Below are positions 15,784 through 64,000 of a stretch of DNA of 64,000 nt, piece by piece. The stretch comes from an uncultured virus (IMG/VR IMGVR_UViG_3300028577_000007). Its lineage: Duplodnaviria; Heunggongvirae; Uroviricota; Caudoviricetes. The notes beneath the pieces are model-generated. The model saw only the letters and a program-made list of their open reading frames with translations. It made no database searches and was not told the DNA's origin. The position numbers were made by a program, and so were the translations under genes. The stretch's first letter is position 1. Every line of letters starts with the position of its first letter. The stretch lies in IMG/VR virus record IMGVR_UViG_3300028577_000007. The stretch is one strand, 5' to 3'.

Positions 15784-17886
15784 TCAGCCGAAGACCCCTT
15801 GACCGCCGTCGGTCTGGAGGATGCCGGCCGGCACCATCTCGGTCGCGCTCTGAGGAGCAGAGATCGAGCGGGTTCCTGCCCAGATTTGCCCGTTCGAGGA
15901 GCCTGGGATCCAGGTGCTGGAGGTCGGCAGAGTCGACACGTCACCGAAGCCGGCAGCGGCCTCGTACGACGGGAGGGCTCCAACGCCCGCCGCCGCTTCC
16001 GCGATGGTGAGCTCGCGATCGAGATCGCCGTGCGGATCGACGTGGTTCGTGTTCGTGGCCTCACGCGCGCCCATACCGGCCGCTGCCTCAGCGAAATCCG
16101 GGTTCGCCCCGTACCCCGCTGCAGCTTCGTACGCTGGGAGCGATCCGAGCCCATTCACGCCGCTCGAGAAGTACTCGCCGAGCCCGTTCACGCCCGAGGA
16201 GAAGTACTCTCCAAGGCCGTTCACGCCGCTCGAGAAGTACTCACCCATGCCGCGCCCGATGGACTGGTACCGCGGCTGGAGCGAGGTGCCCGCGCCGAGA
16301 CCGTACATCGCGCTCAGGCGTGCGGCCGTGCCGTCACCCGCCAGCATGTCGACATGCGTTGGCGCAAACTTCATGAGCGCCGCCGTGAGCAAGGAGGTCG
16401 CGAAGCTGACCGCGATGCCGGTCATGACGGTGTTTCGGGTGCCCGGATCCTTGATGAGCTTCGCCGAGGCGAAGACACCGAGGCCCGCGACGAGGCCCGC
16501 GCCGATGAGCTTCTGGTAGGCCGGATCGAGATTGATCAGACCGAGACCCGAAGTCGCAGGCGCGACCACCGCTGCCGTCGTGGGGCTCGTCTGGACGACC
16601 GTTGCCGGCGCCCCGAAGATCTTGCCCATGACGTTGTTCACGAGGAGGTTCGTCAGCACCTTGTGGCCGACGAAGCCGAGGAGCGCGATGCCGCCCGTCT
16701 TCCCAATGAATATCAGCGTGTCGCCGATGCCGTTCTTCCGGAACATCCGGCGACCGTTCCGGCGGTGCCGGCGACGGTTCGAGGACATCCGACGACGCGA
16801 ACGACGCTTGTTCGGGCTCAGACGAGCTCGCGATCGACGCCGACGATTACTCGACAGGCGACGACGGCTCGAGCGCCGACGACGATTCGGGCGAAGCTTC
16901 GCTACCGCACGACGGCGGCGTCGAGCCGCGACGGCCGACTTCTTCCTCGACAACTTCCTTCGCTTGCCGCCCGCTCGGCGCTTCTTCGACGAACGACGAC
17001 GCTTTCGCTTCGGCGCGACCGCGGAGGCCTTCCGGCGGCTCTTGCGGCGCTTCTTCTTCGAGAACGAAGTCGGCGCGTAGCGCTTCTTCCGGGTACGCCA
17101 GCCACGCTTGGCGCCGATGCTCGTGCCCTTGTTGCGGCGCAGCCGACGGCGGCGACGATTGGCTTTCAGCACGGTCTTCTTCGCGCGACGACGCTTCCGC
17201 TTCGGCGCGGCGGTCTTCTTCGCGACCCGACGACGACGCTTGACCGTGCGGCGCTTGGCCACACGCTTCCTCGGTGCGGAGCGCCGAGCGCTCTTCTTGC
17301 GGCGGACTTTTCGACGAGCCATGGTGCTTTTCCTTGTCACTTTCTTGGGCGCCTTCGCTCGGCGCCGAGATGTCGGGGCTTTCGCCTTCTTCTTCTTTTT
17401 CGGCTTGGACTTCGATCGGGCTCGGGTGGCCGAAGCCCCCCACGGATCTCGATGACGAGAGGCCGCTCGTTCCCAGCGGCGCTCTTGCGACGGGGAGGCC
17501 AGCACCAGAGAAGCGTGCCGGACCTCGTTTCTCCGCATGCGGCGCACGACGTAGCCCGAAGACGCGCGCTTCACGCGGCGAGCATTCTTGTGGAGGCTCT
17601 GCCCCTTGCCCTTCGCGGCCCGCATCCTCTTCGCGAACGCGCGCTTCTTCGCGTCCGACAGACTCGAGCGAGCGGCGGCGGGGCGGCGGTTCGCGGAGAG
17701 CCCGCTCATCGTGCGGCGCGCCGACCGGTAGCTACCCCGGCCATTGATGGCCGCGATGTGCGTCACGCCCCCGTTGGCCGCGAAGCGCGGGCCGTTCCGG
17801 CGGTGCGCGCGGGAGCTCGGGGGCCGGGTATAGCCGTACGCCTTTACAGCGTTCTTTTTGATGCGGTATGCGCGCCCAATAGCCAT
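15784..17886 (-). CDS. 700-aa Arg/Lys-rich (protamine-like) core protein fused to TM helices and a GLG-repeat tail
   Basis: About 380-aa very basic N-part punctuated by hydrophobic-x-x-N; three or four hydrophobic helices; (GLGEYFSSGVN) repeats; AAAG(Y/M/V/F)G repeats. Confidence 0.8.
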   Translation of the reverse strand: MAIGRAYRIKKNAVKAYGYTRPPSSRAHRRNGPRFAANGGVTHIAAINGRGSYRSARRTMSGLSANRRPAAARSSLSDAKKRAFAKRMRAAKGKGQSLHKNARRVKRASSGYVVRRMRRNEVRHASLVLASPSQERRWERAASRHRDPWGASATRARSKSKPKKKKKAKAPTSRRRAKAPKKVTRKSTMARRKVRRKKSARRSAPRKRVAKRRTVKRRRRVAKKTAAPKRKRRRAKKTVLKANRRRRRLRRNKGTSIGAKRGWRTRKKRYAPTSFSKKKRRKSRRKASAVAPKRKRRRSSKKRRAGGKRRKLSRKKSAVAARRRRRAVAKLRPNRRRRSSRRRLSSNRRRRSRARLSPNKRRSRRRMSSNRRRHRRNGRRMFRKNGIGDTLIFIGKTGGIALLGFVGHKVLTNLLVNNVMGKIFGAPATVVQTSPTTAAVVAPATSGLGLINLDPAYQKLIGAGLVAGLGVFASAKLIKDPGTRNTVMTGIAVSFATSLLTAALMKFAPTHVDMLAGDGTAARLSAMYGLGAGTSLQPRYQSIGRGMGEYFSSGVNGLGEYFSSGVNGLGEYFSSGVNGLGSLPAYEAAAGYGANPDFAEAAAGMGAREATNTNHVDPHGDLDRELTIAEAAAGVGALPSYEAAAGFGDVSTLPTSSTWIPGSSNGQIWAGTRSISAPQSATEMVPAGILQTDGGQGVFG
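16148..16250. repeat. 33-nt tandem repeat x3 encoding G(L/M)GEYFSSGVN
   Basis: Three copies of ttcacgcc(gctc/cgag)gagaagtactc. Confidence 0.85.
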
Positions 17887-21352: not shown

Positions 21353-21364
21353 GCGCGTTCGGGG

Positions 21365-30300: not shown

Positions 30301-30336
30301 AGCCTACCTGCTAGGGGCTAGCTCTCGCAACTTTTC
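30301..30336 (-). promoter_or_regulatory. Sigma70-like promoter of virion operon (GAAAAG TTGCGA-N18-TAGGCT)
   Basis: -35 at 30325-30330, -10 at 30301-30306; tctcgcaacttttc is identical to 8630-8643. Confidence 0.65.
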
Positions 30337-30526
30337 GGGGCTGCGGCGCGAGCGGCGCGGTAGCGCTCAAAACCCCGGAGGCGCTCGCAGTAGCAGAAAA
30401 GATGCCCTATTGGCACCGTGACCGACCAGTCTAAGCCGATGAGCGAGGCCCCGGGAGGTCGCGCTATTGGCGCCTCTCGCAAACCGTGCTCTAAGTAGAC
30501 GGGATCGTTCTCTGACAACTGAACCA
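30331..30526 (+). promoter_or_regulatory. CRISPR leader 1
   Basis: Homologous to about 59793-59983; repeat-proximal ~55 nt nearly identical; GCGAGCG/CGCTCGC inverted motifs. Confidence 0.85.
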
Positions 30527-31441
30527 GTGCAAAGGGAGCCCGGGCCCGATGGAAGCCGGGACAACGAATTTATGGCCTGGCTCGGCGTGCGGCGCTGGCG
30601 TGCAAAGGGAGCCCGGGCCCGATGGAAGCCGGGACTGTAGCAACCCGACCGCTGCCGCCGTGTCTCCGATTGGTGCAAAGGGAGCCCGGGCCCGATGGAA
30701 GCCGGGACTTGTGGCGCTGGTAGCTGCCCCACGCTCGGCGGGAAGTGCAAAGGGAGCCCGGGCCCGATGGAAGCCGGGACCGATCGGCGACCGACGCTGC
30801 CACCAGTCGAGCGCAAGTGCAAAGGGAGCCCGGGCCCGATGGAAGCCGGGACGCGATTGCAGCCGCGAGCTCGTGCCGATCCGTCTGCTGTGCAAAGGGA
30901 GCCCGGGCCCGATGGAAGCCGGGACCACAGCAACGCCGCCATCGAAGTTTCGGTGACTCATTGTGCAAAGGGAGCCCGGGCCCGATGGAAGCCGGGACGA
31001 CGTTCCCAACCGAAGGGCGCACCTTCGCGTTCCAGCAAGTGCAAAGGGAGCCCGGGCCCGATGGAAGCCGGGACCCACGCTATTGCCGCGCCCCACGTCT
31101 CTCACCGTTCCATGTGCAAAGGGAGCCCGGGCCCGATGGAAGCCGGGACTTGCGCGATGCGCGCCGGTTCACCCGCCCACCCGAGTGCAAAGGGAGCCCG
31201 GGCCCGATGGAAGCCGGGACATCACCCCGGCGATGGCCAAGGGGGGCTGGGACGTGCCGGTGCAAAGGGAGCCCGGGCCCGATGGAAGCCGGGACGATCT
31301 TGTGCAGCTGGCGCTGGCACAGCCAGGTTTGGTGCAAAGGGAGCCCGGGCCCGATGGAAACCGGGACGAGTCGTTGCTAGCCGCCGGGCAGACCCAAGCC
31401 ACGCTGTGCAAAGGGAGCCCGGACCCGATGGAAGCCGGGAC
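30527..31441 (+). CRISPR. CRISPR array 1: 13 repeats, 12 spacers (35-40 nt), no adjacent cas genes
   Basis: Repeat GTGCAAAGGGAGCCCGGGCCCGATGGAAGCCGGGAC; last two copies carry single changes, marking the trailer end. Confidence 0.97.
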
Positions 31442-40055: not shown

Positions 40056-42770
40056 TCACCGATCCCAGTAGCTGTCTTCCGGAACATTGTCCGCCACGTC
40101 ATCAAACTCTTCATAGCCCCGAGCAATCGGCCTGAAGCTGATCGTCGGGCCATCGAAGATGAGCTTCACGGTGCCGGTTGCGCCGCCGCGCTGTTTAGCG
40201 ACGATGATCTCGGCCTGGTCGTCCGCGTCCTTGTTGTAATACTTCTCGCGGTAGATAAACCAGACCGCGTCGGAGTCATTTTCAATGGCGCCCGAATTAT
40301 GGAGGCACATATTCTGGGCGACGAAGTTTTCTGCCCCTGGGACGCTCAGGTCAAACGTCTCCTCTTCTCCGTCGGGGACAACCGACTCCACCTGATCCCA
40401 CAGCACGTCACTTTCGGCGAGCTCACGAAGCGAAGTCGAGCCGAGAGTCGCCGCCACCTTAGCGAGGTTCGGGCGACTGATGTGTTTACCTTGGTGCACC
40501 CAACCGAGCGAGCGGTAGGTATGCCCTTGCCGAGTCTTCTCCGCTCGGATCAGTTCATTGACCGCGAGTGGCAACCGATCGAACCCCGGCTTCTCTCGCA
40601 CCATCGGCTCTATCGCTGCCCGGCGGAGCTTCTCTCCTTTGATACCGAGCATCGGAACACGCTCCGCAAATCTACGGATCATGAGTTGATCGTGGATCGT
40701 AATCGTCGCGATCGGGACCTTCGACTTCGTGTTGAACTCGGCCGGGCCATGACCCGCAACGATGCCGAGGCGGGTCAGTATCCACATCACCTGGTCCAGT
40801 AGCTGGAAGCTTGTCGACGTGAACTTCAGCGCCCACCCGGACCTCTTTCTTTTCACCACCGATCCGTCTCCTGCCCACAGGGCCCCGAGGAAGTGACCGA
40901 GTGCGTTATTGTCCATCCTGAGGACTTCCTCCGGAATGGTTTTTTCAGGGCCATTCTGATCGTGGATCCCAAGCTCTTTCAGCCATAAGATGACGGGGTT
41001 CTGGCCGCGGCGCCCTCTGCCCCTGGTCACCGTCAACTCGATCTGCTCGGAATCTCCCTGGCACTTGTGATCTTTGGCGGTGATCCCGAAGCGCGAGAGC
41101 GCAATGCGTCGTACGTTGTTCACGAGCGCAGGATCCGCCTTGACGTACCCAACCGAGCGGTACCGGGTGTAGGTTCCGTCTGAAATCAGGTACCCGAGCA
41201 GAGCGAGTTCGTCGGGGGTAAACCTGCGACTCGGCTCGGTGGGCTCCGGGACCACTCTCGGGACCGCGATCCTTTCGTGCGGCTCAAGATCCGCCAAGGT
41301 CTTCCACCCCTCAAGCACTCTCACTCGGTGCTCGCCTGCCGCGCGGAGCGTTCGGCCGGTGCCCGTGGTCAACTTGAAGATCTTTTTCTTCCCCGTGCTC
41401 CATGCGCTAGCCGAGACGGCGGGGTGGAGCTTCCAGTCGTCGCCCAAGGCGGACACGATGGTGCCTTCCTTGAGATCTCGGATCTGCACCCTCGCGCCCG
41501 TCCTCGCGTCATAGACCCATTGGTCACCTGCCAAGCATTCGCGCAGGTTAGCAAGCGAAGGCCTCCTGTCGGTCGCTGAGCTCGAGCCCTTCTCCTTTTC
41601 TCGGTTCACCTGCGAGAGTCCCAAGATACAAAGCCCCTCGCTCTTGGCAAGTTGCTTTAGGCCGCGGGTGATGGAGGAGATCTCGAGCTCGCGGCCTCCG
41701 CCCTGCTCGCCCGTCATGAGCTGCATGTAGTCGACGGCGGCGAGTACGAGCTTCTTCGCCTTGATCGTGCCGCGCGTGATGTCGCGCTTGATCTTCCTGA
41801 TGATCGAGCGCAGCTCGGTCACGGTGAGCGCGGCCTTGTCGCCGATGAGGATCGGGTGTTTCAAGAGCTCGTCTGCTGCCCGGAACAGCTCCCGCCACTG
41901 CATCTCGGTCAGCTGGTTCTGACGGAGGCGCGCGTACTCGATGGAGGCCTGCACGCAGACGAGCCGAAGGGAGATCTCTTCCTTCGGCATCTCGAGTGAA
42001 TGGAAATACACGGCATCTGGAAGGCTCCCGTCGGCAGGCGGCTTCGTCGTGCGGAGCAGGCTCGAGCCTGCGAGCGCGGTCTTGCCTTGCCCGGTCCGGG
42101 CGGCGAGCGTCACGAGGTGCCCAGGCTGATAGCCCCCCGTCATCTTGTCGAGATCGGCGTAGCCAGTGGTCGCGCCAATCGTTTGACCAGTGCGGAAGGC
42201 GTGAGCGAGCTCGGCGAGCCCCCGACCACCGATGGCCCCAGCGAGCTCGTAGGTCGCTTCCCGCTCATCGTGAGCGACCTCCCAGACGCGGGTCTCGTGC
42301 TCTTCGATGACATCGCGAGACGGGACGCCCTTCGGGTGGTAGAGCGCCGCGATCGTGGTCTGGCTGAGCGCGATGACCTGGCGCGCGCGCCAGTGCTGGA
42401 TGACCGTTCGGCAGTACTGCTCGAGAAGCCCCGGCTTACCTTCGACGGGGCCGAGGTCAGTGAGGCGCGCGAGGTAGGAGCTCCCGACTTGTTCGAGGAG
42501 CCCGCGCAAGCGAAGGTCGCCTGCGACCTCGACGAGATCGATGTACTGCTTCGACTCGCTGAGGTTACAAATCGCTTCCCAGATCTGGCGATTCGGAGCG
42601 GCGTAGAAGTGGCTCGCCTCAAGCCCGATCGCGACGCAGCGGTCGTAGTCACCCGGCTCGAGAATGACCCACGCAAGGATCGCACCCTCGGCGTCGAGAT
42701 CCGACGGAGGGACGTTCCCGGGGTTAATGTGAGTCGGATCCGGGAGCCGGTTTGCGTCGATCGCTGTCAA
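40056..42770 (-). CDS. dnaB: Replicative DNA helicase DnaB with intein
   Basis: AARTGQGKT, SLEM, VDYMQL, LSQVNR, LRE|...|SGAIENDSD, KQRGG. Confidence 0.95.
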   Translation of the reverse strand: MTAIDANRLPDPTHINPGNVPPSDLDAEGAILAWVILEPGDYDRCVAIGLEASHFYAAPNRQIWEAICNLSESKQYIDLVEVAGDLRLRGLLEQVGSSYLARLTDLGPVEGKPGLLEQYCRTVIQHWRARQVIALSQTTIAALYHPKGVPSRDVIEEHETRVWEVAHDEREATYELAGAIGGRGLAELAHAFRTGQTIGATTGYADLDKMTGGYQPGHLVTLAARTGQGKTALAGSSLLRTTKPPADGSLPDAVYFHSLEMPKEEISLRLVCVQASIEYARLRQNQLTEMQWRELFRAADELLKHPILIGDKAALTVTELRSIIRKIKRDITRGTIKAKKLVLAAVDYMQLMTGEQGGGRELEISSITRGLKQLAKSEGLCILGLSQVNREKEKGSSSATDRRPSLANLRECLAGDQWVYDARTGARVQIRDLKEGTIVSALGDDWKLHPAVSASAWSTGKKKIFKLTTGTGRTLRAAGEHRVRVLEGWKTLADLEPHERIAVPRVVPEPTEPSRRFTPDELALLGYLISDGTYTRYRSVGYVKADPALVNNVRRIALSRFGITAKDHKCQGDSEQIELTVTRGRGRRGQNPVILWLKELGIHDQNGPEKTIPEEVLRMDNNALGHFLGALWAGDGSVVKRKRSGWALKFTSTSFQLLDQVMWILTRLGIVAGHGPAEFNTKSKVPIATITIHDQLMIRRFAERVPMLGIKGEKLRRAAIEPMVREKPGFDRLPLAVNELIRAEKTRQGHTYRSLGWVHQGKHISRPNLAKVAATLGSTSLRELAESDVLWDQVESVVPDGEEETFDLSVPGAENFVAQNMCLHNSGAIENDSDAVWFIYREKYYNKDADDQAEIIVAKQRGGATGTVKLIFDGPTISFRPIARGYEEFDDVADNVPEDSYWDR
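40296..41537 (-). mobile_element. Intein (414 aa) with LAGLIDADG endonuclease in DnaB
   Basis: Starts CLAGDQ, ends LHN followed by Ser; LLGYLISDG and FLGALWAGDG motifs. Confidence 0.93.
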
Positions 42771-49217: not shown

Positions 49218-49220
49218 GGT

Positions 49221-50847: not shown

Positions 50848-50850
50848 GGG

Positions 50851-51093
50851 TCAACCTACTTTGCGGGTGAGTAGGTGTTCCAGTTTGGACGCAAAGGGCG
50901 ACTCGTCGCCCATGACCGCCTGGTCAGCGATCCGGATCAGCTTCCGGAGCGTGTCGGGGATCTTCAGCTTCTCGAAATCCGCCAAGCGGACGAGCGCCGC
51001 GTAGTGGTCAGGATCGAGCCTGAAGGTCACGTTCTTGAGGCAATTTTCAGAGGCTTCGTCGTCTTCGAGCGCGTCGCGATTGGGGTGATTCAT
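50851..51093 (-). CDS. CopG/RHH-like regulator
   Basis: VTFRLDPDHYAALVRLA...PDTLRKLI; directly upstream of the initiator. Confidence 0.6.
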   Translation of the reverse strand: MNHPNRDALEDDEASENCLKNVTFRLDPDHYAALVRLADFEKLKIPDTLRKLIRIADQAVMGDESPFASKLEHLLTRKVG

Positions 51094-51463
51094 GCGGAGC
51101 CATGAGTACTAGTCCGACTCCGATCCGACGTGCAACAGAATTGCGGCAGAATTGTTGTCACTTGACATTAAATTCAGTGTCTTGACTCCGCTCTACAAAT
51201 CTCGGATCGCGGCTCAGTCAGTGGTGCAGAGCTCGAAAGATCGAGATGATCCCGCTCGCTATCAGGAGCACCGTGATCGTCACGATCGCTCCCGCTTGAA
51301 ACCCCGCCCATATGGCGCGCCCGACTCGGAAGTGGAGCTCGATCGCTTGCTCCTCGCTGAGCCCAAACTCTCGCATGAGCTCGCCATGGTCCATCCGTGA
51401 GACGATCTTCCGGCACCTGCTTACTGAAGCTCACTGGGCTTCGTCCTCGGCCCGCAGCGCCGC

Positions 51464-52168: not shown

Positions 52169-53401
52169 GAGCTGGTTCGTCCTGTCGTACTCGCGTCGCG
52201 CACTCGGCGCACAGATCGGGGTAATCGTCGCTGCCGCCTTGGCACCAGCAGACTTCGTCGGCGCACAGCTCGCACCGAAAGGTCTGATCTGGCCTGAAGC
52301 CGCATCGCACCTGGCCCGAGACGCACTCGCGCCAGGGCGGCGGCAGGGGGCCCGGGATGGTGCTCATTGTATCCTGGCGAACGCCATGCAGCGGCGTGAT
52401 GTCATTTGTGTGAGCCCGCCGCTGACACGATCACATTGACTACCGGCGCGGGGATCACGAGTGATGGTGGGGCCTGTACGTTCACAATAGGCGCTGGGAT
52501 TACGACGGGAGCTAGCGGCTTATCTGGTTTCCAGATCTTGTAGACCGGCAAAGCGCATTGACCTAGTCCGCTAAGTGACGCGATCACGGCCATCGCCAGA
52601 GACCATCTCGCCATCGAAATTGCTCGATCGCGTTCACCTTCTGCTTGCTCAAGCAGAAGCTGATTTGACAGTCGAACGACCTCATTCTCAGCCACTCGCA
52701 GCTCCATTTCGAGCGCGCCGACATTCGCAAGAGACTCTTGACGGAAGCCTTCGTCGACTCCGACCCTTGGAGCGTTTGCGCTCAGCCGAGCGAGCGCGCG
52801 TTGCCGCCCAGGTGGCGATATCTTCCATGGTTCCCGTGCGGGAGATCAATCGGTCGTAAGATTGTCTGCAAGCCCGACACCACTGCCTGAGGTAGCCGCG
52901 GATCGAGGGACGCGCGCAGATTTTACAGTTCGCCATTACTAACCCACTCGAACGTGTTCCTGAACTGATCCTCTGCCGTTGCACAAACGTGCACCCTCTC
53001 CACGTCGTCCTCGCGACGCGCTACTACAGCAGTATCGGAGACGACGAAGATCTCGCCTGTGAATCGATGCTTCCAACGCGAACCATTTAAAATCGGGGTG
53101 CAGCCACTGCCCCAGCCGCGGCGCCGAAGGCGCTCAGGGAGCGTTTCAGGGTGAATCGGATCGTTCCGCTGTGACCCGAGGCCTTCGCTCGTGGGCGCCC
53201 CGCTCGGGGCAGCGCTCGCGTTCCGGAACCCCGGTAAGAATTGCACGCCGACGGTGCACTCGATAGCGGGCCTCCAGGTGAGGCCGCAGCTCTGGCAGGA
53301 GTGCGTATGGTGCGGCTTCGTTGCAAATTCCCCTTCGTCGATGTGGAGCTCGCCGCACGCCTCGCAGCAGAGGCGCATGGGGATGGGAGGTTTGTCGTCC
53401 G

Positions 53402-54568
53402 TCATTTTCTTGGCTTCACGTGGATCTCGCCGACTGGCGTAATCGGTACGAGGATGATGCAGAGGGTCTCGTTCCGGAGGCAGAGGGTTTGCTGCCCGTT
53501 GATGGCGTCGTAGTACAGATCGAGCTCGGCGGGGGAGAAGCTTCGGAGTGCTTGGGACAGGAGACCGCCGTCGATGTGGAGCCGGAACGCCGATCCGTCC
53601 TCGGGCGCCTCGATGAGGGGGAGATCGTCCTCGCCAAAGTTGCGCTCGCTCTTTCGCGTCGAGACGACGCACCCGGCCGTCTTCTCGTACGCGATGTCGA
53701 TCTGCACGAAGCGTTCGGCGCCTTCGACGAAGTCGGCGGCCACGCTGACCGCGCGCACGCTTTCCAGAAAGCGGTCGCTACTGACTTTGAAGCGCTTCAC
53801 CTGGGGGATGTGCTCGAGCATGAGCTTCCAGACCGCCGGGAAGGTCGTGGCGAGCCGCAGGGCAAGGATGAGCGTCTCGCCGTTCTTGGTCGCGACGCCG
53901 ATCTTTTGTTCGTCCATGCTGATGACGAGCTCGGTGGTGTCACTCGAGAGCGCGCCCACAGCGTCGAGGAGGTTCGTGGGGAGGAGGCACTCCTGCCTCT
54001 GGCTCGCCGCCGTAAACCAACCGGTCGCAACGGCCATCTGGCGGCTCGACATGGAGACGCAGCGAAACTTCAATCCGTCCGGATCGGGCGAGAGCAAGAT
54101 CCCGTCCGTGTAGGCCTTGTCCACCCCGAACCGCACCTCATCGCAAGCCTGCTGCAAGATCTTCGTCTCGATGGAGTAGAGCGCCTCCCCAGCGGTCGCT
54201 CCCGAGATCTCCGGAAAGTCGGCGGGGTCGGCGCCCGTCATCGTGAATTTCCGCTTCCCCGAGCTCCCTCGGAAGCTGACCTGGAAGCGGTCGTTTACGG
54301 TGATTTCGATGGAGCCGAGGGGCAACTCGGTGACGATGGCGGAGAGGCGGCGGTGGTTCAGGAGCGCGCGACCGGGCTTCCTCACCTCGCCATGGGCTTG
54401 GCAGATGACGGCGAGCGGACCGCTACTACCGGTAATAACGAGGGGCTGTTTCGCTTCGGTGACGATGAGCACCGATTGGCGGAAGGCGAGCATGTCGCTC
54501 GGGTTGATGGCGGCTCCGGCGCGCTTGAGCGTGGACAGGAATTCTTGGCGGTCGATGGCAAATTGCAT
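53402..54568 (-). CDS. dnaN: DNA polymerase III beta sliding clamp
   Basis: 388 aa; MQFAIDRQEFL, ELPLGSIEI, ADFPEI, FP.VWKL, LLSQALR, ILVPI. Confidence 0.85.
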   Translation of the reverse strand: MQFAIDRQEFLSTLKRAGAAINPSDMLAFRQSVLIVTEAKQPLVITGSSGPLAVICQAHGEVRKPGRALLNHRRLSAIVTELPLGSIEITVNDRFQVSFRGSSGKRKFTMTGADPADFPEISGATAGEALYSIETKILQQACDEVRFGVDKAYTDGILLSPDPDGLKFRCVSMSSRQMAVATGWFTAASQRQECLLPTNLLDAVGALSSDTTELVISMDEQKIGVATKNGETLILALRLATTFPAVWKLMLEHIPQVKRFKVSSDRFLESVRAVSVAADFVEGAERFVQIDIAYEKTAGCVVSTRKSERNFGEDDLPLIEAPEDGSAFRLHIDGGLLSQALRSFSPAELDLYYDAINGQQTLCLRNETLCIILVPITPVGEIHVKPRK

Positions 54569-54578
54569 GGAGTCCTTT

Positions 54579-55100
54579 TTAGGTGGATAGGTCGGGAAGC
54601 GATCGGCGATCGATGATCTGGTAGCCGCCGTCCTTCATCAGGACGACGCCATCGCCGGAGGGGTTGATATGGGCGCGTACGGCGGCGTCGCCCGGCCATT
54701 TGCTTTGGGCATAAGCGAGGAAGCGCTTCTCGAGAGCTGCCCGCTCGGCCCAATAGGCGCGGTAGTACTCGGCGTGCTCGACGGAGCAAAACAGATCATC
54801 GCCGTCGCGATAGAAGCCGGGGTCCGAAGAGCCCACGCGCTTATCGCAGTGACTGCACGAGAACGACCAACCGTCGTCGAGGCACCACGAGAGCAGATCG
54901 CCTTCGAAATGATCGAGCTTCGGGAAGCGTCTACACTCGACGCTGTCCCAGTCGCTATCGAGGCAGTCTGCGCCGTACCGGCGCGCTTCGGCATGGAAGC
55001 GGGCCCACACGAAGATGCTCATCCCTTCGTAGTCCAGGGTCACGATGAAGCACTTGTCGGCTTCTGGGTGGGCGAGGTAACCGAGCTCCATCACGGGCAT
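54579..55100 (-). CDS. Hypothetical protein with Cys motifs
   Basis: GWSFSCSHC...LFCSVEH. Confidence 0.55.
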   Translation of the reverse strand: MPVMELGYLAHPEADKCFIVTLDYEGMSIFVWARFHAEARRYGADCLDSDWDSVECRRFPKLDHFEGDLLSWCLDDGWSFSCSHCDKRVGSSDPGFYRDGDDLFCSVEHAEYYRAYWAERAALEKRFLAYAQSKWPGDAAVRAHINPSGDGVVLMKDGGYQIIDRRSLPDLST

Positions 55101-56265
55101 GGGATCGGTACTCCTTTCAGCTCGCGCGAATACCGGCGAGGGTGCAGAGCTCGCAAGAGCGCGACCCCCGGAACGCTCACGTGATAGTAACGCAGCGCGC
55201 CCGGCACCTTACGCCCCGGCACCGCTAAGAATAGCTCGCAGAGCAGCTCCCACTCAGCGAACGAATCGTCCGCCGCGGCGTAGTGGTTGCGATGCCCGTG
55301 GTCACCGACAGCGTGCTCCAAGAGACGAAGCAGATCGACGCCGTTGTAGGACGCGGTCATGGGGCCGCCTGAGAGATGTCGAGCAAGATCGCCTGGTGCT
55401 GCGCTTCGCTCATTTCCTTGCCGATGCGGATCGCAGCCATGAGCGCGTTGACGTAAGCGGCTGGGAGGTCACCGTCTTGGAGTTTACCGAGAGCGAAGCA
55501 GAGATCTTTCTCGGCGTCCCGCCGCGCGAGATCGCGCTTGATCCACGACGAACCGAGTCGCGCGGCCTTCGATGCTTGGACACGTTTCATCGCGCCGCCC
55601 GTGGCACGAACACCCTCAACTTCGAGCGGCACCCTTCGCACACGCCAGCGCCGATGAGCTTTCCAGTCCCCTCTGGCCGGTAACCAGTCTCCCATTCCAC
55701 CCCGTGTCCCTTCATGCAGAACATGCAACTCAGCTGGTCTTCCTGTGGACCAGCCTCTTGCTTCACGAGGTGCAGCGTTAGGGATAGCGTGGCCGCTTGC
55801 TCCTTGGGAGCAGGATCGGGCCCGGGCTCGGGCGGAGCCGCCTGCGGGTGAAGATTGAAGTGGTTCAGGAGCCAACCCTCACCCTGCTCGATGTAGTAGT
55901 CGCCGCTTTGCCCGAGCGCTCCGGCGCATTCGCGAATGACCGCGTCGCGAAAGAGTTGGCGCTGCCGCGTGCGGTGCTCCGCGAGAAAGTCTCGCGCGTA
56001 GAAGCCGTCGCCGGCGTTCGCGTGCATGTCGCCATCGTGGCCCCAGGGGAGCTCGCAGGCGCCGACGTTGTACGATGGGATACCGCAGAGACGGTCGGTC
56101 ATGGGACTGGGTCACCTTTCTTGTCGGGTCTGGTCGCAAGGAGCGCGTCCGCCGCGGCCTCGTATTCTTGGCGCCGGCGCTCGGGTAAACGGAGCCACAG
56201 GTTTTCCTTAGGCTCGCGCTCGATCTCGTGGGTGCGAAGGAGGCGAAACAAAAACTCCCCCGGGG

Positions 56266-56622
56266 TCATTGAGTCTCGTTACTGAGCGGAGCGCTCGCTT
56301 CCCAAGCGAGCTTGAACTCTTCCGAGTAGCCGCGCTCCGTGCGACACATCGCGCGCACGTCCTCCCGCATCTGCCCCGCCGCGTAGGACAAGTCGTCCCG
56401 ACCAAGCGCCAGCACCGCGATCGAGTGGCAGCTCCGGATCCGCTCACACTTCTGGCAGAGCACATACCTCGACCACTTGCCGCGGTCGAAGGTGTTCAGG
56501 AACATATATCGGTGCCCGGGCTCGATGGGCACGGTGCACTCAGCGCAAGCGTGCTCGCGGCGCGCTGTGTGGCGGTGCACCGTGCCAGGGCGCTTCTCGG
56601 GCGACGTGGGGTCGCTCATCAA
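56266..56622 (-). CDS. Zn-binding hypothetical protein, paralog A
   Basis: ARREHACAEC..IEPGHRY...CQKC. Confidence 0.65.
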   Translation of the reverse strand: MMSDPTSPEKRPGTVHRHTARREHACAECTVPIEPGHRYMFLNTFDRGKWSRYVLCQKCERIRSCHSIAVLALGRDDLSYAAGQMREDVRAMCRTERGYSEEFKLAWEASAPLSNETQ

Positions 56623-56999
56623 AGCACCGTCGAATATCGACCGAAGCCTAGGGGCTTTGGTTTCTGCGGGACCGGCTCACCCTTCCACGCCGCCCGGAAC
56701 GCGACCAAGTAGTGCGGCTCTTCACGGATGCACTCCTTGATCTGGCTCAAGAGCTCACCCACGTAGTAGCTCGAGTCTCCTCCCATGGACCGCTCTGCCG
56801 CCATGTGAGCCCTCTCGACGCGGTGGCACTTCAGGCACTGCGCCCAGTCGCTGACGCTGCCATCGGTCTTCGAGACGCACCGGAAGTAGTGCTCACCCGG
56901 CTTGATGGGGCACCGGCACTCGCGGCACCAGTGCGCCTTCCGGGCCTTCCGCCGGATCTCGCTCGACCACTCGACCTCCCAGTCTGTTCCTTCGCACAT
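56619..56999 (-). CDS. Zn-binding hypothetical protein, paralog B
   Basis: ARKAHWCREC..IKPGEHY...CLKC. Confidence 0.65.
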   Translation of the reverse strand: MCEGTDWEVEWSSEIRRKARKAHWCRECRCPIKPGEHYFRCVSKTDGSVSDWAQCLKCHRVERAHMAAERSMGGDSSYYVGELLSQIKECIREEPHYLVAFRAAWKGEPVPQKPKPLGFGRYSTVL

Positions 57000-57382
57000 G
57001 GGTTACTCCTCCTCCGTGGACGCGAGGTAACCCGCGCCAAACTGCTCCAGTATGTCAGCGACCGTGAGCGATCTGACCTCGCAGCAAGAGAAGTCGACGC
57101 TTCGCACCTGGTCGTTTTTGCCAAAGAACACGCAGAGCGGGCGCGGGTTAGCGGGAGGTCGCGTAAACCCCGGAGGGCGCTTAGGTGTAGTCATTGCGCA
57201 CTCCTCGCCGAGGAGGGCTCCGGTAGCGGCAGCATGGTCCCGGGATCGATGCCCAGGCCGCAATAGGTCGTGACCGAGCCCCGGCCAGCGTTGGGGATGT
57301 GGGTTTTCTTTGCCATGGGTACAGGTACCTACGCGCGCTCTCGCGGGGAGCTTCCCTGGAAAACGATCCGTGAGATAGCGCG

Positions 57383-57412
57383 TTGACAGCTCCCAGATAG
57401 CAGTGGTAGCGT
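57383..57412 (+). promoter_or_regulatory. Sigma70-like promoter at the strand switch (TTGACA-N18-TAGCGT)
   Basis: Consensus -35 and extended -10; lies where minus-strand genes end and plus-strand genes start. Confidence 0.55.
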
Positions 57413-57579
57413 CCGTCGTCGAGATGAAATTATACCCGACTCCGCTCCCGCCGCCGCTTTCCCGGGGAACGCCTGCGCTCCACAGGCAGCGGACGCTGGT
57501 TGAGCGCGCGGACCACCGTTCAAGCTGAGGATATTGACTGGCTACGGCCGGAGGAAGATCCGGCGTCGCCCAGTCGTAG

Positions 57580-59025
57580 GATGGAGCCAATGGAAGAGAG
57601 TTTAGAATCACTACGAGTAGCCATCACGAACCTCAAAGGCTGGCCCTTGAGCAAGCGCGACACCTTCGCCGCCTTCAGTCTGATGGGCCTCACGAGCCGC
57701 CTGCAGCCGCTCCAGGTAAACAGCACCGAGCACCAGGAGCTCGTCGTGGGGCTGGCGTTCAAGCTGGGGGACTTGGCCGCCGCAGAGAGTGAGAAGTAAG
57801 CATGCCGCAGCACAAGCTCGAGCGAGTAGCCCCACCGATCCCCTACGGCACCCGGGTCGCGCTGGTCGATGACGCTGGCGTGGTGCACATCACCCGCACG
57901 CGGAGCGATGCCTGGATCGTGTCTGATGGCGCCTCGGGCGCCTGGCTCGTGCTGGTCGAAGGTCGCACGGGTGGCTATCGCGTCGACCGACTATTCCTAC
58001 TGCCGGACAATGTACTGGAGCTCGCCTGATGCCGGATCCCGTCGACCACGCTCTCTCCGAGAGCAAGCTGAGGAAAGCGGCTCCCCCGCGGCCCGTCTTC
58101 ATCACGCTGGTCCACCAGCAATCGGGAGCGCGCAAATCCGTGCAATACCTGGGCATGGCCGGCATCCCGCTGCGGGCTCAGATTTTTTGGCCGATCGCGG
58201 GCGACTACCTCGTATCCCCCCGCTCCGGAACCCTCCTCGGTCCGCGCAAATCTGCCGAAGCGCTTCGCCATTGGAAGGTGAGCTCGCCGGATCACGTTTT
58301 CCTAAAGAATGAATACCGCTCGGCGCGCGCCAGGCTCTCTGACGCAGAACGACTCACCAAATGCCCGTGACCCCGCTGTCAATTGTCCCGAGGCTCCGCC
58401 AGCAGGAGCAGTGGCTGCGGAGCGGAGGCCTTTACGAGGCCGCGGTGACCATCCAGCGCCGCGCCGACATCATCGAGCAGGCCGGCGAGTACCCGAGCTG
58501 CCCGAGTTACATGGATCGTGGGACCGCGGCGATGCCGGACTGCTACCTGCTGGATGATTTGCTGATCGTGCCGTCAAGTGACGGCGCCGTGACGCTCGGC
58601 TTCACTAAGGATCGGGCGGAAGTCTTGCTGATGTATACGGCGGCGTACCTAGGCTTCAGCATGGGTGAGCTCGTGGATCTGGAGCACCAACTCTGGAAGG
58701 TCAGGGATCGATCGTGAAGCACACCGTGCGCATCTGGGATGCCCTGAACAGCACCGAAGAAGACGACGCGGTGGAGATCGCTATAGAAGTGTTCTCCGGC
58801 TACCCCGGCTACCCAAAGGGTCTCGATCCTTTCAGCGGAGATCCGCCCACGGAGAGCGAGCTGCTTCAGGCGGCGGAGCGCTTCGTGGAACAGCGGTGGG
58901 CCGAAAGCGACTACCTTGACTGCACGCGCGTGCTCGTGAGGAGAGCGGACGGGCGGCTCTTTGGGTACGATGTGCACGCCGAGACCATCGTGCACTTTAG
59001 GGCGGTCCCAATTGAATCGGCATGA
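57580..59025 (+). CDS. Run of five small coupled hypothetical ORFs (57580-57799, 57802-58029, 58029-58370, 58361-58717, 58714-59025)
   Basis: Overlapping or abutting start/stop codons. Confidence 0.55.
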
Positions 59026-59184
59026 GACCTCCGGTCGATTACACGCCGACCGGCTCGCGTGTCTTGGATTTCGCGCTCAACGTGCTCGACGGACTCGAGA
59101 TCGCGGTCCTGCTCGGGCTGTTTCTAGTGTTCGGGAAGAGGCAAAAGTTTTGACTCCCCACTCTTTCGATTTAAAAGGCCGGCC

Positions 59185-59787
59185 ATGGACCTGAACGCAG
59201 CTATTTTCACCTCGCTCATGAGAATGTCGCCGCACAAGACGGACACGGAGACGCGCCCCGAGCGCGAGATCCGGATGCACATCGTGGCCGACGCCATCCA
59301 TGACGCAACGCTTCGCGCTGCCTGCCAGGGGCGCTTCGCGGACGCGGTTTGCAAACCCATCTACTCCGACCGACGCACGCTCGCGGCGCTGCTCCTCGGC
59401 AAAGGTCACTTCGAGTCGAACTTCGCGGAGTACGTCCACACAGGCCATTGCGAACAGGGCCCCCCAGGGGCTCGTTGCGACTCAGATCGAAACGGCGTCC
59501 CGCGCGCTCACGGCCCTTGGCAACAATGGGAGCTCTCGGTCTTTCCTCGGGAGGACTGGGTGGCCATGCACGCTGCGACGCCAGAGGCGACGGGGCTTGC
59601 GGCCTGGCATGCGGCGCGGCTCCTGGCGGGGTCTCGGTCGATGTGCAAAGCCGCCTTCGGAGGCGACGAGATCCAGGCTGCCATCGCGGGCTTCGCGGGC
59701 AGCTGCACCATGGGCATGAGCCCGAAGAAGATCGCGTTTCAGGCGGCAACGGTCAGGAAGATCTTGGCCGCGCTGCCGGCCGAGTAG
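59185..59787 (+). CDS. Lysozyme/lytic-transglycosylase-like protein
   Basis: AALLLGKGHFESNF...RAHGPWQ resembles SLT ES and G..Q motifs. Confidence 0.6.
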   Translation: MDLNAAIFTSLMRMSPHKTDTETRPEREIRMHIVADAIHDATLRAACQGRFADAVCKPIYSDRRTLAALLLGKGHFESNFAEYVHTGHCEQGPPGARCDSDRNGVPRAHGPWQQWELSVFPREDWVAMHAATPEATGLAAWHAARLLAGSRSMCKAAFGGDEIQAAIAGFAGSCTMGMSPKKIAFQAATVRKILAALPAE

Positions 59788-59792
59788 GGAGC

Positions 59793-59983
59793 TTTTCGGA
59801 AAGCGCGAGCGGCGCGGTAGCGCCAAAACCCCCGGAGGCGCTCGCAGCAGCAGAAAAGATGCCCGATCGGCTCTGGCTACCGACCAACCGAGGGTAGTGG
59901 CGAGGTCTCCGAGAGGAGGCGCGTTGGCGCCTCTCGCAAACCGTGCTCTAAGTAGGCGGGATCGTTCTCTGACAACTGAACCT
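59793..59983 (+). promoter_or_regulatory. CRISPR leader 2
   Basis: Homologous to 30331-30526. Confidence 0.85.
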
Positions 59984-61689
59984 GTGCAAAGGGAGCCCGG
60001 GCCCGATGGAAGCCGGGACGCACACGATATGGATTCAGGCGAGGCACGATCTACGTGCAAAGGGAGCCCGGGCCCGATGGAAGCCGGGACATCGATCGGG
60101 CGATCGACGCCGCAATCGACGCCGGAGTGCAAAGGGAGCCCGGGCCCGATGGAAGCCGGGACGGTGTCGTAGGCGCGCGCGGCCGCGATGGGGTCAGCGA
60201 AGTGCAAAGGGAGCCCGGGCCCGATGGAAGCCGGGACAGGAAGTCCACCGCCGTCGTCTTGTGGACTTTGCTCGTGCAAAGGGAGCCCGGGCCCGATGGA
60301 AGCCGGGACACTTCTGGCGCTCCCGGCGAGCCCGCTCGGTCTCAAGGTGCAAAGGGAGCCCGGGCCCGATGGAAGCCGGGACGAGTTCACGAAGAAGAAC
60401 CGCGCTATCCGTTGTTTCGTGCAAAGGGAGCCCGGGCCCGATGGAAGCCGGGACCTATCCGTAGTCACGCACCGCGTGGCGTGGTAGGCGCCGAGTGCAA
60501 AGGGAGCCCGGGCCCGATGGAAGCCGGGACAATCGCTACGGGTTGAGCAGCACCGAGAGCTTGGACGTGCAAAGGGAGCCCGGGCCCGATGGAAGCCGGG
60601 ACGGCGGCGCTCCCTTCTGCCGGTGGCGAGCAAGCCCGTGCAAAGGGAGCCCGGGCCCGATGGAAGCCGGGACGAGACGCGCTCAATCGTCGTCGCCGAG
60701 GCAATGAGTTGTGCAAAGGGAGCCCGGGCCCGATGGAAGCCGGGACACGGTCTTCTTCGCGCGACGACGCTTCCGCTTCGGCGCGGCGTGCAAAGGGAGC
60801 CCGGGCCCGATGGAAGCCGGGACCCTGCGAGAGTCCCAAGATACAAAGCCCCTCGCTCTTGTGCAAAGGGAGCCCGGGCCCGATGGAAGCCGGGACGCCT
60901 AGTGTTCGCGCTCTTGAGCTTGTCAGTCATCGGCGTGCAAAGGGAGCCCGGGCCCGATGGAAGCCGGGACAGGTCATGGCCTACGTGCTCGTCCCCCGCA
61001 GTCTCCCCGGTGCAGAGGGAGCCCGGGCCCGATGGAAGCCGGGACCAGCGCTACCGGAGCGGCCAGGCCTTCCGCTACCAAGTGCAGAGGGAGCCCGGGC
61101 CCGATGGAAGCCGGGACGTGGAAAGCCGCGCATTGCCAGGCAGCGAGTGGGTAGGTGCAGAGGGAGCCCGGGCCCGATGGAAGCCGGGACACAGTTACTG
61201 AAGCGTAGCCAGTCAGGTTGGAATGATGTGCAGAGGGAGCCCGGGCCCGACGGAAGCCGGGACGATTAGAACGGCAACGGTCAACGTTTTCAGGTCGGTG
61301 TGCAGAGGGAGCCCGGGCCCGACGGAAGCCGGGACGTGCACAACGTGGCCGCGAGCTACTACGTGGACCGTTGTGCAGAGGGAGCCCGGGCCCGACGGAA
61401 GCCGGGACCCCTGGTAACGCGGGCATTCAAGACTCGGCGCTCACGCGCAGAGGGAGCCCGGTCCCGATGGAAGCCGGGACCAACACGTCTACGACAAGTA
61501 CGCGCGCGTTGCGTGGTGCAGAGGGAGCCCGGTCCCGATGGAAGCCGGGACGAATGTTGGACATTCCCGCCCGGCCTCTGTCGATCAGGCGCAGAGGGAG
61601 CCCGGGCCCGATGGAAGCCGGGGACAGCTCCCGGGTTCCTCGTCGCGCAAAACGAACGAACGCTCTGCAGAGCCGATGGAAGCCGGGAC
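59984..61689 (+). CRISPR. CRISPR array 2: 24 repeats (last one truncated), 23 spacers (35-41 nt), no cas genes
   Basis: Same 36-bp repeat as array 1 for the first 14 copies; GCAGAG variant from 61010 onward; degenerate trailer. Confidence 0.97.
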
Positions 61690-61704
61690 GAGCCGCGTCG
61701 CCTC

Positions 61705-61739
61705 AAAAACTTTCGCTCCAGACCGCCTCCGGCTATTGT
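61705..61739 (+). promoter_or_regulatory. Putative promoter (AAAAAC TTTCGC-N17-TATTGT)
   Basis: A-tract, -35 and -10 layout as in the other virion-gene promoters. Confidence 0.45.
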
Positions 61740-61746
61740 CCTGGCT

Positions 61747-62175
61747 GTGCCATTCGATCCCGAGCAGCCCCCGCGCCCCATGTGGGATGCGGGGTTAGGT
61801 GACGATCCTGCCCCGGTCTCACCGTCGCCGAGCGGCCCGGCCCCATTGCCGACGGCCCCCACGCAGACGAGCTCAGCTTCGTTGCCCGCCCCGGCTCCTG
61901 CTCTGACGCCAACGGCGGCGCGTCGGCGCGCCGGCGGCGCCATCGTGCTCACTGGCGTGGGCATCGGCGCAGGCGCGCTTCTCGGTGGCCCCTGGGGAGC
62001 AGGTTCTGGGCTCTTCTTTGCAGGCGCTCTCTCGAACGCCTACCGCGCCTCCACCCTGTGGCGCTCCGACTTCGCCGACGATCGAAAAGAAGCCATGAAG
62101 GCCACGGTCATGACCGTGCTTGGTGTGGGGCTTGCGGGCTACCTCGGCTATCGAGCGCGCGAGGCGCGCGACTGA
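61747..62175 (+). CDS. Membrane protein with DAGLGDD motif
   Basis: GTG start; Pro-rich; three hydrophobic segments; basic tail. Confidence 0.65.
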   Translation: MPFDPEQPPRPMWDAGLGDDPAPVSPSPSGPAPLPTAPTQTSSASLPAPAPALTPTAARRRAGGAIVLTGVGIGAGALLGGPWGAGSGLFFAGALSNAYRASTLWRSDFADDRKEAMKATVMTVLGVGLAGYLGYRAREARD

Positions 62176-62196
62176 ACACCAAAGAAAAAGGAACCC

Positions 62197-62520
62197 ATGA
62201 GCTACGTCGCTTTTCCTCCCGCTCCGCCCCTCGTGAGGCCGCTTGCTCGATCACGGTTTGGCCCGGGTCTCCGCGGTGTCGGTACGCTCATGGACGCGAA
62301 CGTGCTCACGTCCGCCTGGTACTTGCCGCTCATCGAGCGGCTGGATCGATCTTCGGCTGCGCGATCGTATCAGTGGGGCCCCATGAAGTATCTTTCGAAC
62401 TGGGACGCTCTCAACTACAACATCGGCTTTACCGAGTACACTGGGCTCGTGTCTCAAGAGTCCACGCTCTATCAATGGGACGGGTCCGAGTGGCTAAAAA
62501 CGAACGTCGGTAACGTCTGA
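62197..62520 (+). CDS. Putative virion protein (MSY start, LRGVG motif)
   Basis: 107 aa; purine-rich RBS. Confidence 0.6.
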   Translation: MSYVAFPPAPPLVRPLARSRFGPGLRGVGTLMDANVLTSAWYLPLIERLDRSSAARSYQWGPMKYLSNWDALNYNIGFTEYTGLVSQESTLYQWDGSEWLKTNVGNV

Positions 62521-62550
62521 CCACCCCGCGCCGGAACAAGAGAGAAAAAT

Positions 62551-63402
62551 ATGAGCTCCAGCCAGATTGTGCTGATGGACGGGCAGTGGACGATGTGCCG
62601 CTTCCTTCGCCCTTTCCCGAACTTCGAGCGTGTGTATCAAGGCAAGGGCGGCACGATCCCCATCGCCTTCCCTGGCGTCCTCGATCTCTTTGCCGAGCGC
62701 GGCGTCGTGGGCTTCGACCCAAACCTCATCGCCGGCATCACGGTTCCGTACGGCTCGCGTGTCACGATTTGGATCCCGCAAACCATCGCGGGCTACACGG
62801 TCAACGCGCTCTATCAGTACCAGATCATCTGGCGCCTCCGAAGCGTGCGGGACTTCCGGGCAGGTCAAGCAGAAGGCCAGGTCTCGGCGCTGCAAGACTA
62901 CTCCGGCTACCACCTCGCGACTTCCGGGCTCGGTCAGCCCGAGCAAAACCCGTCAGTCCCGACTCCGACGTCGGCGACGAAGCGCTACTTCATCCCGGGC
63001 TCGACGAGGACGGTCGCGTTCGAGCAGAGTGAGCCGGCGCTCGGGCTTCCGGGGGTCATTCACCTGACGGGTGAGATGCTGCAGCCGACCCTGAGCCCGA
63101 TCTGGACGCAGCCGCTCACGCCGAGCGGCGCCAACGCGGTCTGGCAGCAGGGCACCTACGTGGGCTCGTCCCAGGCCAACACCGGCGGGCCGTCGTGGCT
63201 CACGTTTACGTGCGACGCCGAAGGCGACGAGATGAGCATCCTCGCCTACAAGATCCCGCCGGACGAAGGCTCGCCGCCCGCGTGGGATTTCACGGCCGCA
63301 GCTCCAGGCGATCTCGCCTTCTCGAACACCTACGGCAACGGCAACGGTCAAAACCAGCCGAGCCCGTTCACGAGCATCATGGTCACGACGGGCACGCGCT
63401 GA
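62551..63402 (+). CDS. Beta-rich putative virion protein
   Basis: 283 aa; TSGLG; purine-rich RBS. Confidence 0.6.
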   Translation: MSSSQIVLMDGQWTMCRFLRPFPNFERVYQGKGGTIPIAFPGVLDLFAERGVVGFDPNLIAGITVPYGSRVTIWIPQTIAGYTVNALYQYQIIWRLRSVRDFRAGQAEGQVSALQDYSGYHLATSGLGQPEQNPSVPTPTSATKRYFIPGSTRTVAFEQSEPALGLPGVIHLTGEMLQPTLSPIWTQPLTPSGANAVWQQGTYVGSSQANTGGPSWLTFTCDAEGDEMSILAYKIPPDEGSPPAWDFTAAAPGDLAFSNTYGNGNGQNQPSPFTSIMVTTGTR

Positions 63403-63409
63403 CCGGACC

Positions 63410-64000
63410 GTGCTCGAGCCGTACCTAGGCCCCCGCGATCCGCAGGTGGACGTGATCTGGGTCATCGTGCCCTTCTCGCGCCCCGAGCACGCCTCGCGCG
63501 TGCTCGCGAACTTCGCCCGCCAACGCTTCGCGGGCAAGCGGCTCATCGTCGTCGGCAATGGAGCATGCGGCGCCGCGGGCTCGCTCTCGATCGGCGGCGC
63601 GCACTGGATCACTTCCGCCGCGCACCCGGCCCACGCCCGGAACGAAGCGCTCGCGTTCATTCGGAAGCGGGGCGGCGGCTTCTTCTCGCTGATGGACGAC
63701 GACGACTGGTACGGCCCGGGCTATCTTGACGAGGTAGCGGGTTACGCGCGCTCCGCCGACGTGGTCGGTAAGCGCCAGCACTTCGTCTCACTCGGAGAGG
63801 GCCTCACCGACCCTGCACCCCAGCTCTTGCTCTGCTACCGGCGCTACGCCGAGAGCGATCCGGCGCCATGGCTCACGGGTGGCGCGATCAGCGGCTGGGC
63901 CGAGACGGCGGTCGACTTTCCCGTCGTCAGGGGGACCGAAGATCTCGCCTGGTGCGATCGAATGATCGCCCAGGGCGCGCGCCTCCGGGGGCTATCCATA
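63410..64000 (+). CDS. GT2-like glycosyltransferase (3' end outside window)
   Basis: Manual translation: VIWVIVPFSRP...ARNEAL...LMDDDDWYGPGYL. Confidence 0.8.
   Translation, partial: MLEPYLGPRDPQVDVIWVIVPFSRPEHASRVLANFARQRFAGKRLIVVGNGACGAAGSLSIGGAHWITSAAHPAHARNEALAFIRKRGGGFFSLMDDDDWYGPGYLDEVAGYARSADVVGKRQHFVSLGEGLTDPAPQLLLCYRRYAESDPAPWLTGGAISGWAETAVDFPVVRGTEDLAWCDRMIAQGARLRGLSI

Follow-up and report, generated by a model that had tools for sequence, protein, structure and literature searches.

Two CRISPR spacers that match their own phage's genes may be tolerated passengers of a Cas12m system

We analysed a 64,000-nucleotide stretch of DNA from an uncultured virus (IMG/VR record IMGVR_UViG_3300028577_000007), which we call the window. 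The phage genome to which the window belongs is at least 127 kb long, and a 339-aa protein encoded in the window is recorded on a contig of 127,411 nt. Most of the window's ORFs belong to no known family. Those that were recognised are DnaB, a DnaA-like domain, a sliding clamp, ThyX, dTMP kinase, Dam and C5 methyltransferases, glycosyltransferases, and tape-measure-like and peptidoglycan-binding proteins. These families fit a large phage; the carrier is a lytic-looking phage from soil. Two relatives in IMG/VR are collinear with the window over its full length, with a median amino acid identity of about 60%: G003 (110.7 kb) and G006 (135.4 kb, with terminal repeats, rated complete). Sequencing run X17 contains a relative that is about 93-97% identical to the window phage. 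Neither array (see below) nor the dnaB DNA had a match among GenBank phages or PLSDB plasmids, and no relative of the sliding clamp was found in IMG/VR.

Several other genes deserve mention. The gene for the 339-aa protein (8969-9988) has about 50 metagenome homologues and is differently placed in related phages (beside dnaB, within the structural block, or near the slot of array 2), so it appears to move as a cassette. A C5 DNA methyltransferase (43763-45203) is seemingly split in two: an 89-aa ORF (44934-45203) corresponds to the start of C5 methyltransferase models, and a 385-aa ORF (43763-44920) corresponds to the remainder plus a PHROG domain with no assigned function. A free-standing homing-endonuclease-like ORF (14911-15558) lies among the genes of the structural block and is missing at that place in G003. 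Past the window's right end (contig L123, 1579-3459), there is a gene for a 626-aa collagen-like repeat protein, followed by glycosyltransferase and methyltransferase genes.

The window holds two CRISPR arrays, each preceded by a copy of the same leader (Table 1). The 36-nt repeat occurs 36 times (13 + 23), which gives 12 + 22 = 34 spacers. (An earlier reading, made from the letters alone and called the sequence-only reading below, had counted 35.) In array 2, variant repeats build up rightward, and the decayed remnant of a repeat lies to the right of the array (about 61667-61690). In array 1, the final two repeats have one change each. Since the shared leader is at the left and the decayed repeats are at the right, both arrays read left to right. 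Array 1 is flanked by minus-strand genes and array 2 by plus-strand genes. About 50 nt before the first repeat, the leader of array 2 contains a box that does not vary among the six leaders compared from related phages, although the repeats of these six arrays differ. A second, upstream box with an inverted repeat is present in four of the six leaders. A simple scan for sigma-70-type promoters found none in either leader, and a search of the window against Rfam found nothing.

Table 1. Coordinates of the arrays, the leaders, the two self-matching spacers and their targets. (Positions are in the window unless a contig or phage is named.)
Feature	Coordinates	Strand	Description
Array 1 leader	30335..30526	+	copy of array 2 leader
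CRISPR array 1	30527..31441	+	13 repeats, 12 spacers, repeat as in array 2
Array 2 leader	59795..59983	+	about 190 nt, common to both arrays
CRISPR array 2	59984..61624	+	23 repeats of 36 nt, 22 spacers of 35-41 nt
Spacer 11, array 2	60747..60787	+	41 nt, identical to 17171-17211
Spacer 12, array 2	60824..60860	+	37 nt, identical to 41609-41645
Self-protospacer 1	17171..17211	+	in Arg/Lys-rich part of ORF 15784-17886 (-), residues 226-239
Self-protospacer 2	41609..41645	+	in DnaB_C domain of ORF 40056-42770 (-), residues 376-388, just before intein
700-aa protein	15784..17886	-	N-terminal half basic; C-terminal half hydrophobic, Gly-rich; in block that related phages have too
Replicative helicase DnaB (N and C domains)	40056..42770	-	interrupted by intein with LAGLIDADG endonuclease
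Leaders compared	59795-59983 and 30335-30526; L151 384-590; L161 18299-18500; L164 4038-4240; L243 7410-7463
Sites of variant spacers	61006-61265 and 60825-60926		runs X1, X17
G017 arrays (L278-L282)	41843-42165, 53806-54825, 60424-60531, 71802-72792

We then examined the two spacers that drew attention to this locus. As had been claimed, spacers 11 and 12 of array 2 are identical to parts of the phage's own genes (0 mismatches for both, on the + strand). Among 100 dinucleotide shuffles, none gave a second match with up to 3 mismatches for either spacer. When we ran the proposed check of every spacer against the window, just 2 of the 34 matched elsewhere in it, at up to 7 substitutions. (Protospacer 1 also has a weaker second copy at 16979-17019, which matches at 31 of 41 positions.) Both targets do lie within minus-strand genes. 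The first of these genes had been labelled a core protein, and its 700-aa product has no match in Pfam, PHROGs, PADLOC or NCBIfam. Protospacer 2 falls in a conserved motif of DnaB. Three further details were confirmed: ten spacers separate spacers 11 and 12 from the leader and so are newer; the 5' flanks of the protospacers do not resemble the end of the repeat (1 of 8 and 2 of 8 bases are identical to its last 8 bases); and GG directly follows both protospacers on the + strand. We considered the shared GG as a PAM and rejected it, as type V PAMs are on the 5' side and a dinucleotide common to two sites is about what chance would give. The three bases on the 5' side are AGC for protospacer 1 and TCA for protospacer 2.

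A concern with any such match is that the assembly could be a chimera, in which an array from a host was joined to the phage that it targets. Identity of 37-41 nt between spacer and protospacer can mislead assemblers. But phage genes lie on both sides of both arrays, the arrays have a common leader, and homologous leaders with arrays are found in related phages as well. Also, when we scanned metagenomes for the core of the repeat, we found two contigs, both of this phage and both from other assemblies, and these connect array 2 to its left and right flanks. L122 corresponds to 58899-60797 of the window (99.9% identity) and includes the left flank, the leader, and spacers 1-11; L123 corresponds to 60537-64000 (100%) and continues for 7.5 kb beyond. 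In run X1, long contigs span 41500-59953 at even depth and end 30 bases before the first repeat, which is where contigs built from 31-mers must end. Coverage in this run is low at 60176-60842. Overall, a chimera is barely credible, and the worry that the array belongs to another replicon, such as the host's, was not borne out.

Contigs of runs X1 and X17 also carry, between copies of this repeat, spacers that the window lacks; 31 and 27 letters separate the flanks. These are variants of the arrays or one more array of the phage lineage. (Logan contigs break at each repeat, so the linkage of spacers cannot be recovered from them.) Another phage with dispersed arrays is G017, a complete 80-kb phage in which several arrays with the same repeat lie away from cas12m, so the dispersal is not unique to the window.

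Which Cas protein would these arrays use? We found no cas gene either within the window or over the 7.5 kb past its right end. Three related phages (G003, G004, and G006) have, directly behind a gene for a protein of 484-707 aa (514 aa in G003 and 707 aa in G004), an array whose leader is homologous to the window's, as are the repeats of G003 and G006. A profile of this effector family matched solved structures of Cas12m (23vw_A, E = 7e-109) and Cas12m2 (8hhl/8hio, E = 4e-47). One member by itself, P0075 (520 aa), matched 23vw_A with E = 4e-29. PADLOC called it Cas12u1 (7.6e-46), an older name for type V-M. P0075 is 60% identical to the effector of G003, and its longest-contig figure is 127,411, the same as for the window's 339-aa protein. 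Most likely, a Cas12m of the P0075 type is on the same genome as the window; this placement comes from the shared figure and from synteny, rather than from reading the gene itself. By synteny with the relatives, the gene would be 15-30 kb to the left of the window. Of 75 IMG/VR loci that encode a relative of this effector, 53 have an array right behind the gene, whereas both of the window's arrays lie between unrelated genes. Cas1 was found in none of 20 virus records. The first aspartate of the RuvC site is replaced by asparagine in P0075, P0055, the effector of G003, and the family consensus; it is aspartate in 23vw_A.

The repeat itself points to Cas12m as well. The window's repeat can be aligned with 14 effector-linked repeats, and the 15 repeats share a fold with a 6-pair stem, separated from the guide by two bases, plus a 3-pair pseudoknot. 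Pairing is kept in 95.6% of cells, with compensatory changes in 8 of the 9 pairs; none of 500 shuffles scored as high, and controls in which the pairing was slid gave 30-46%. In the clade that includes the window, two of the pseudoknot pairs are flipped from C-G to G-C. The G-U pairs favour this strand. The covariation fixes the strand and orientation of the repeat, and the stem and pseudoknot match those described for the Cas12m crRNA in the excerpts available of PMC11013384. (This claim rests on covariation and not on folding energy, which does not exceed that of shuffled repeats on either strand.)

The sequence-only reading supposed that the arrays rely on host Cas. In the form of this idea that we considered, the orphan arrays would depend on a type III or type I system of the host, with crRNAs that act on mRNAs. 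This would explain why no cas gene is in the window, a 36-nt repeat with spacers of 35-41 nt also suits type III, and the crRNAs from spacers 11 and 12 would both pair with mRNAs. But an exhaustive search for the 29-base core of the repeat among the genomes of 185,579 species gave 0 matches, and in metagenomes the repeat was seen just on the two contigs of this phage. A looser pattern for the ends of the repeat occurs at at least 121 loci in genomes; among the matches listed, none is related (they are protein-coding or belong to other repeats). The architecture and covariation of the repeat fit those of Cas12m-linked repeats. Also, the self-matching spacers that we describe below have no bias in orientation, while type III guides should be complementary to transcripts. 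We consider a borrowed host system very improbable. The use of host Cas is not supported: in the collections searched, no host array carries this repeat, and the relatives have an effector gene of their own beside the array. The arrays most likely serve a phage-encoded Cas12m, as judged from the relatives.

What is known about Cas12m bears on the fate of a self-matching guide. According to the available excerpts of PMC11013384 and PMC10442227, Cas12m orthologues with D-E-D, H-D-D, or N-D-D active sites bind PAM-flanked DNA without cutting it (all three forms of the RuvC site failed to cut in the excerpts of PMC11013384). The same excerpts state that Cas12m blocks transcription or replication and interferes only where an essential function is targeted, that about 18 bp of the heteroduplex is read, and that Cas12m2 requires T at -3 and -2 (TTN) while other orthologues take T- or C-rich PAMs. 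Neither of the window's protospacers has the TTN of Cas12m2. AGC would be an unlikely PAM for the window's orthologue, while TCA could be acceptable as a T/C-rich PAM.

The window and its relatives share with characterised type V-M systems (MmCas12m2, GoCas12m, and MsCas12m; 8hhl, 8hio, and 23vw) the effector family, a 36-nt repeat with a stem and pseudoknot directly before the guide, a non-canonical RuvC site, the lack of nearby adaptation genes, and carriage by a mobile element. They differ in that the effector is smaller (about 480-520 aa instead of about 600) and has Asn-Glu-Asp where the solved 23vw protein has Asp-Glu-Asp. Also, the arrays are apart from the effector, as two leader-plus-array copies, and two guides match the carrier perfectly. 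The carrier differs too: it is a phage of 127 kb or more that looks lytic, where the excerpts of PMC11656645 place type V-M mainly on plasmids and in some prophages. Our literature searches turned up no description of V-M arrays with spacers that match self.

To place the two spacers in context, we surveyed 20 sequences: the window and 19 IMG/VR records. An oriented repeat was obtained for 16 of them. (We dropped G005, which has no array; G002, a fragment without the effector; and G018 and G019, which have no 30-40-nt consensus. We kept G001, although its effector is of the V-U4 type and not V-M; it contributes 2 of the 14 self-matches.) The 16 arrays or sets of arrays have 269 spacers, of which 249 are at least 30 nt, and we allowed up to 4 mismatches over the full length. 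Matches to the spacer's own genome were found for 14 of the 249 spacers, in 10 of the 16 records, as compared to 0 matches for reversed spacers and 1 match to another record. The targets are in unrelated genes, including a Uma2-type gene, MT-A70, a collagen-like gene, and cas12m itself. The sequence-only reading had put weight on the antisense orientation of spacers 11 and 12, and this did not hold up across the 10 phages: with target strands assigned from ORF length and GC3, 8 of the 14 spacers are antisense, 5 are sense, and 1 could not be assigned.

Four of the self-matches are perfect: the window's two and two in G014 (L269, 17941-18013). The two in G014 (41 and 37 nt) match opposite strands of one gene, which is Uma2-family endonuclease-like and lies about 600 nt upstream of cas12m; the array is at 20969-21368. 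The other ten self-matches, two of which are in one gene in G010, have 21 mismatches in total. Fourteen of these mismatches are at guide positions 1-7 (binomial p = 3.6e-6), and all 10 spacers have at least one mismatch there (p = 1.8e-5). Guide positions 1-7 adjoin the PAM, which is where type V guides tolerate mismatches the least. Because all ten imperfect self-matches are mismatched in the seed, self-binding is probably disarmed there as a rule, a sign that binding to the phage's own genome is selected against. The disarming could arise by a change in the target or in the spacer, or else because spacers taken from kin are retained only where their seed differs from self.

Pyrimidines are present at both -3 and -2 for 1 of the 4 perfect self-targets versus 5 of the 8 imperfect ones from V-M phages, which is not a significant difference (the imperfect count is 6 of 10 if the V-U4-type phage is included). 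The self-targets of G003 and G004 have 5' flanks of TTC and TTG. We regard the association between a perfect match and the lack of a PAM as weak.

G003 has a self-match within its own cas12m gene (L151, spacer at 166-203 and target at 1850-1887). The two agree at 36 of 38 positions, with mismatches at guide positions 6 and 28. The target encodes the most conserved N-terminal motif of cas12m, and the seed mismatch is in a codon that varies among homologues, which would fit the retention of a spacer that came from kin and differs from self in the seed. A guide against its own cas12m recalls the Cas-regulating cr-like RNAs (CreR, tracr-L, and regulatory mini-arrays) that Shmakov et al. (2023) are said to have described, and which reportedly repress their own locus without cutting. 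Such units are degenerate, stand by themselves and match cas promoters in part, whereas the window has full spacers in ordinary arrays, with targets in the coding regions of unrelated genes.

G001, a related 140-kb phage, has a similar leader box and an unrelated repeat (array at 92856-93900). Instead of Cas12m, it encodes a Cas12u4-type effector (TnpB-like, with an HTH; L141, 13882-15801), so the effector and the repeat were probably exchanged as a unit.

We then weighed what spacers 11 and 12 might do. One idea is programmed self-repression: Cas12m with these guides would damp replication and assembly by binding dnaB and the basic gene of the structural block, and so would set the timing of infection, a carrier state, or latency. 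Cas12m is a natural non-cutting repressor (in the excerpts of PMC11013384 and PMC10442227), and the targets are one replication gene and one structural-block gene. The perfect matches of 41 and 37 nt are adjacent in the array and were kept while ten spacers were added. Other phages have paired self-matches as well (perfect ones to both strands of one gene near cas12m in G014, and imperfect ones to one gene in G010). Against this, the arrangement is not conserved, as neither dnaB nor the basic gene is matched by any spacer of the closest relatives (G003 and G006), and the targets in other phages are unrelated. The 5' flanks are not TTN, there is no rule for orientation (8 to 5), and for 10 of the 14 self-matching spacers the seed is mismatched, which implies that self-binding is usually removed. 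On balance, self-repression seems rather doubtful.

There is a reported precedent for a guide of this kind. Guo et al. (2022) reportedly described a type IV-A system of Pseudomonas oleovorans, a non-cutting and element-borne repressor whose natural spacer is directed at a gene in the same cell. It resembles the window in being a non-cutting CRISPR system on an element with a self-matching guide, but it is a Class 1 system, is DinG-dependent, is borne by plasmids or islands, and targets the host chromosome, not the carrier element.

Another idea is that the spacers are weapons against kin: they would be acquired from superinfecting siblings and act on them at conserved sites, and the carrier would be hit but cope, or would be spared by DNA modification or timing. 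The phage does encode several DNA methyltransferases and glycosyltransferases, and protospacer 2 is in a conserved motif of DnaB, as the self-match of G003 is in the most conserved motif of cas12m (with its difference at a variable codon). A spacer of G004 matches G005 (31 of 35), runs X1 and X17 have extra spacers between the same repeats, and X17 has a relative about 93-97% identical. Arrays on viruses that target related viruses are documented: according to the excerpts of PMC11656645 (which refer to Medvedeva et al. 2019), the mini-arrays of the portogloboviruses SPV1 and SPV2 play a role in virus-virus competition. As in the window, these arrays are on viral genomes without adjoining cas genes, and the SPV spacers target close relatives. 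They differ in having just one or two spacers and repeats that are identical to those of host arrays, and in using host Cas, per the same excerpts. The window has 12 + 22 spacers, no host array was found, and the effector family is phage-encoded. A difficulty is that a perfect match cannot distinguish self from kin, so it cannot spare the carrier. Also, spacer 11 matches the homologous site in G003 at just 32 of 41 positions, with mismatches in the seed, and spacer 12 has no match in G003. In the survey, 1 of 249 spacers matches another of the 20 sequences versus 14 that match self, in a set without close kin. We consider kin weapons unlikely.

In a fuller scheme, the phage would use its own Cas12m as a programmable self-repressor, with perfect guides that throttle replication and assembly through the helicase and a virion-block gene, as a switch written in CRISPR that delays lysis or maintains a carrier state, and the seed-mismatched self-matches of its relatives would mark guides that tell kin from self. 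This fuller scheme is improbable, in our view.

We favour a simpler explanation, to which we give a probability of about 45%: spacers 11 and 12 may be tolerated, probably unbound passengers in phage Cas12m arrays. The window's arrays would be stand-alone leader-plus-array copies of a phage-encoded type V-M locus, and the matching effector, a Cas12m of about 520 aa with asparagine for the first RuvC aspartate, is most likely encoded outside the window. Transcripts would run left to right, and in each crRNA the 3' part of the repeat (the stem and pseudoknot) would remain before the guide. If the window's effector behaves as is established for characterised orthologues, then it binds PAM-flanked DNA and blocks transcription or replication, with no cutting. 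Because Cas12m binds without cutting, the self-matches would not be suicidal. The most likely source of spacers 11 and 12 is the DNA of the phage itself or of a sibling with an identity of at least about 99%. They were presumably captured by an adaptation module of the host, as cas1 is absent. They would persist because nothing is cut and because binding is probably poor at both sites (AGC and TCA, not TTN). Spacers that are not bound would escape selection and remain perfect, which fits their age in the array.

Tolerance was one of three options that the sequence-only reading offered, and it is the one that we favour, for a different reason: the arrays most likely belong to the Cas12m family, whose effector binds without cutting. 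A caveat is that both perfect targets are in genes that matter (the helicase and a conserved structural-block gene). That two spacers, side by side, outlasted ten later acquisitions also fits a useful function. And the two perfect spacers of G014, beside its cas12m, count against passengers.

Self-targeting by CRISPR is normally read as autoimmunity. In a type of CRISPR that only binds DNA, a self-matching guide is instead either harmless or a ready-made switch for a gene. In the window and 15 other records, of phages that are related to it or similarly equipped, Cas12m arrays often contain self-matching guides; most of them are disarmed in the seed and a few remain perfect, and this pattern can be tested. 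More broadly, arrays on a phage that have no cas genes as neighbours need not rely on the Cas proteins of the host.
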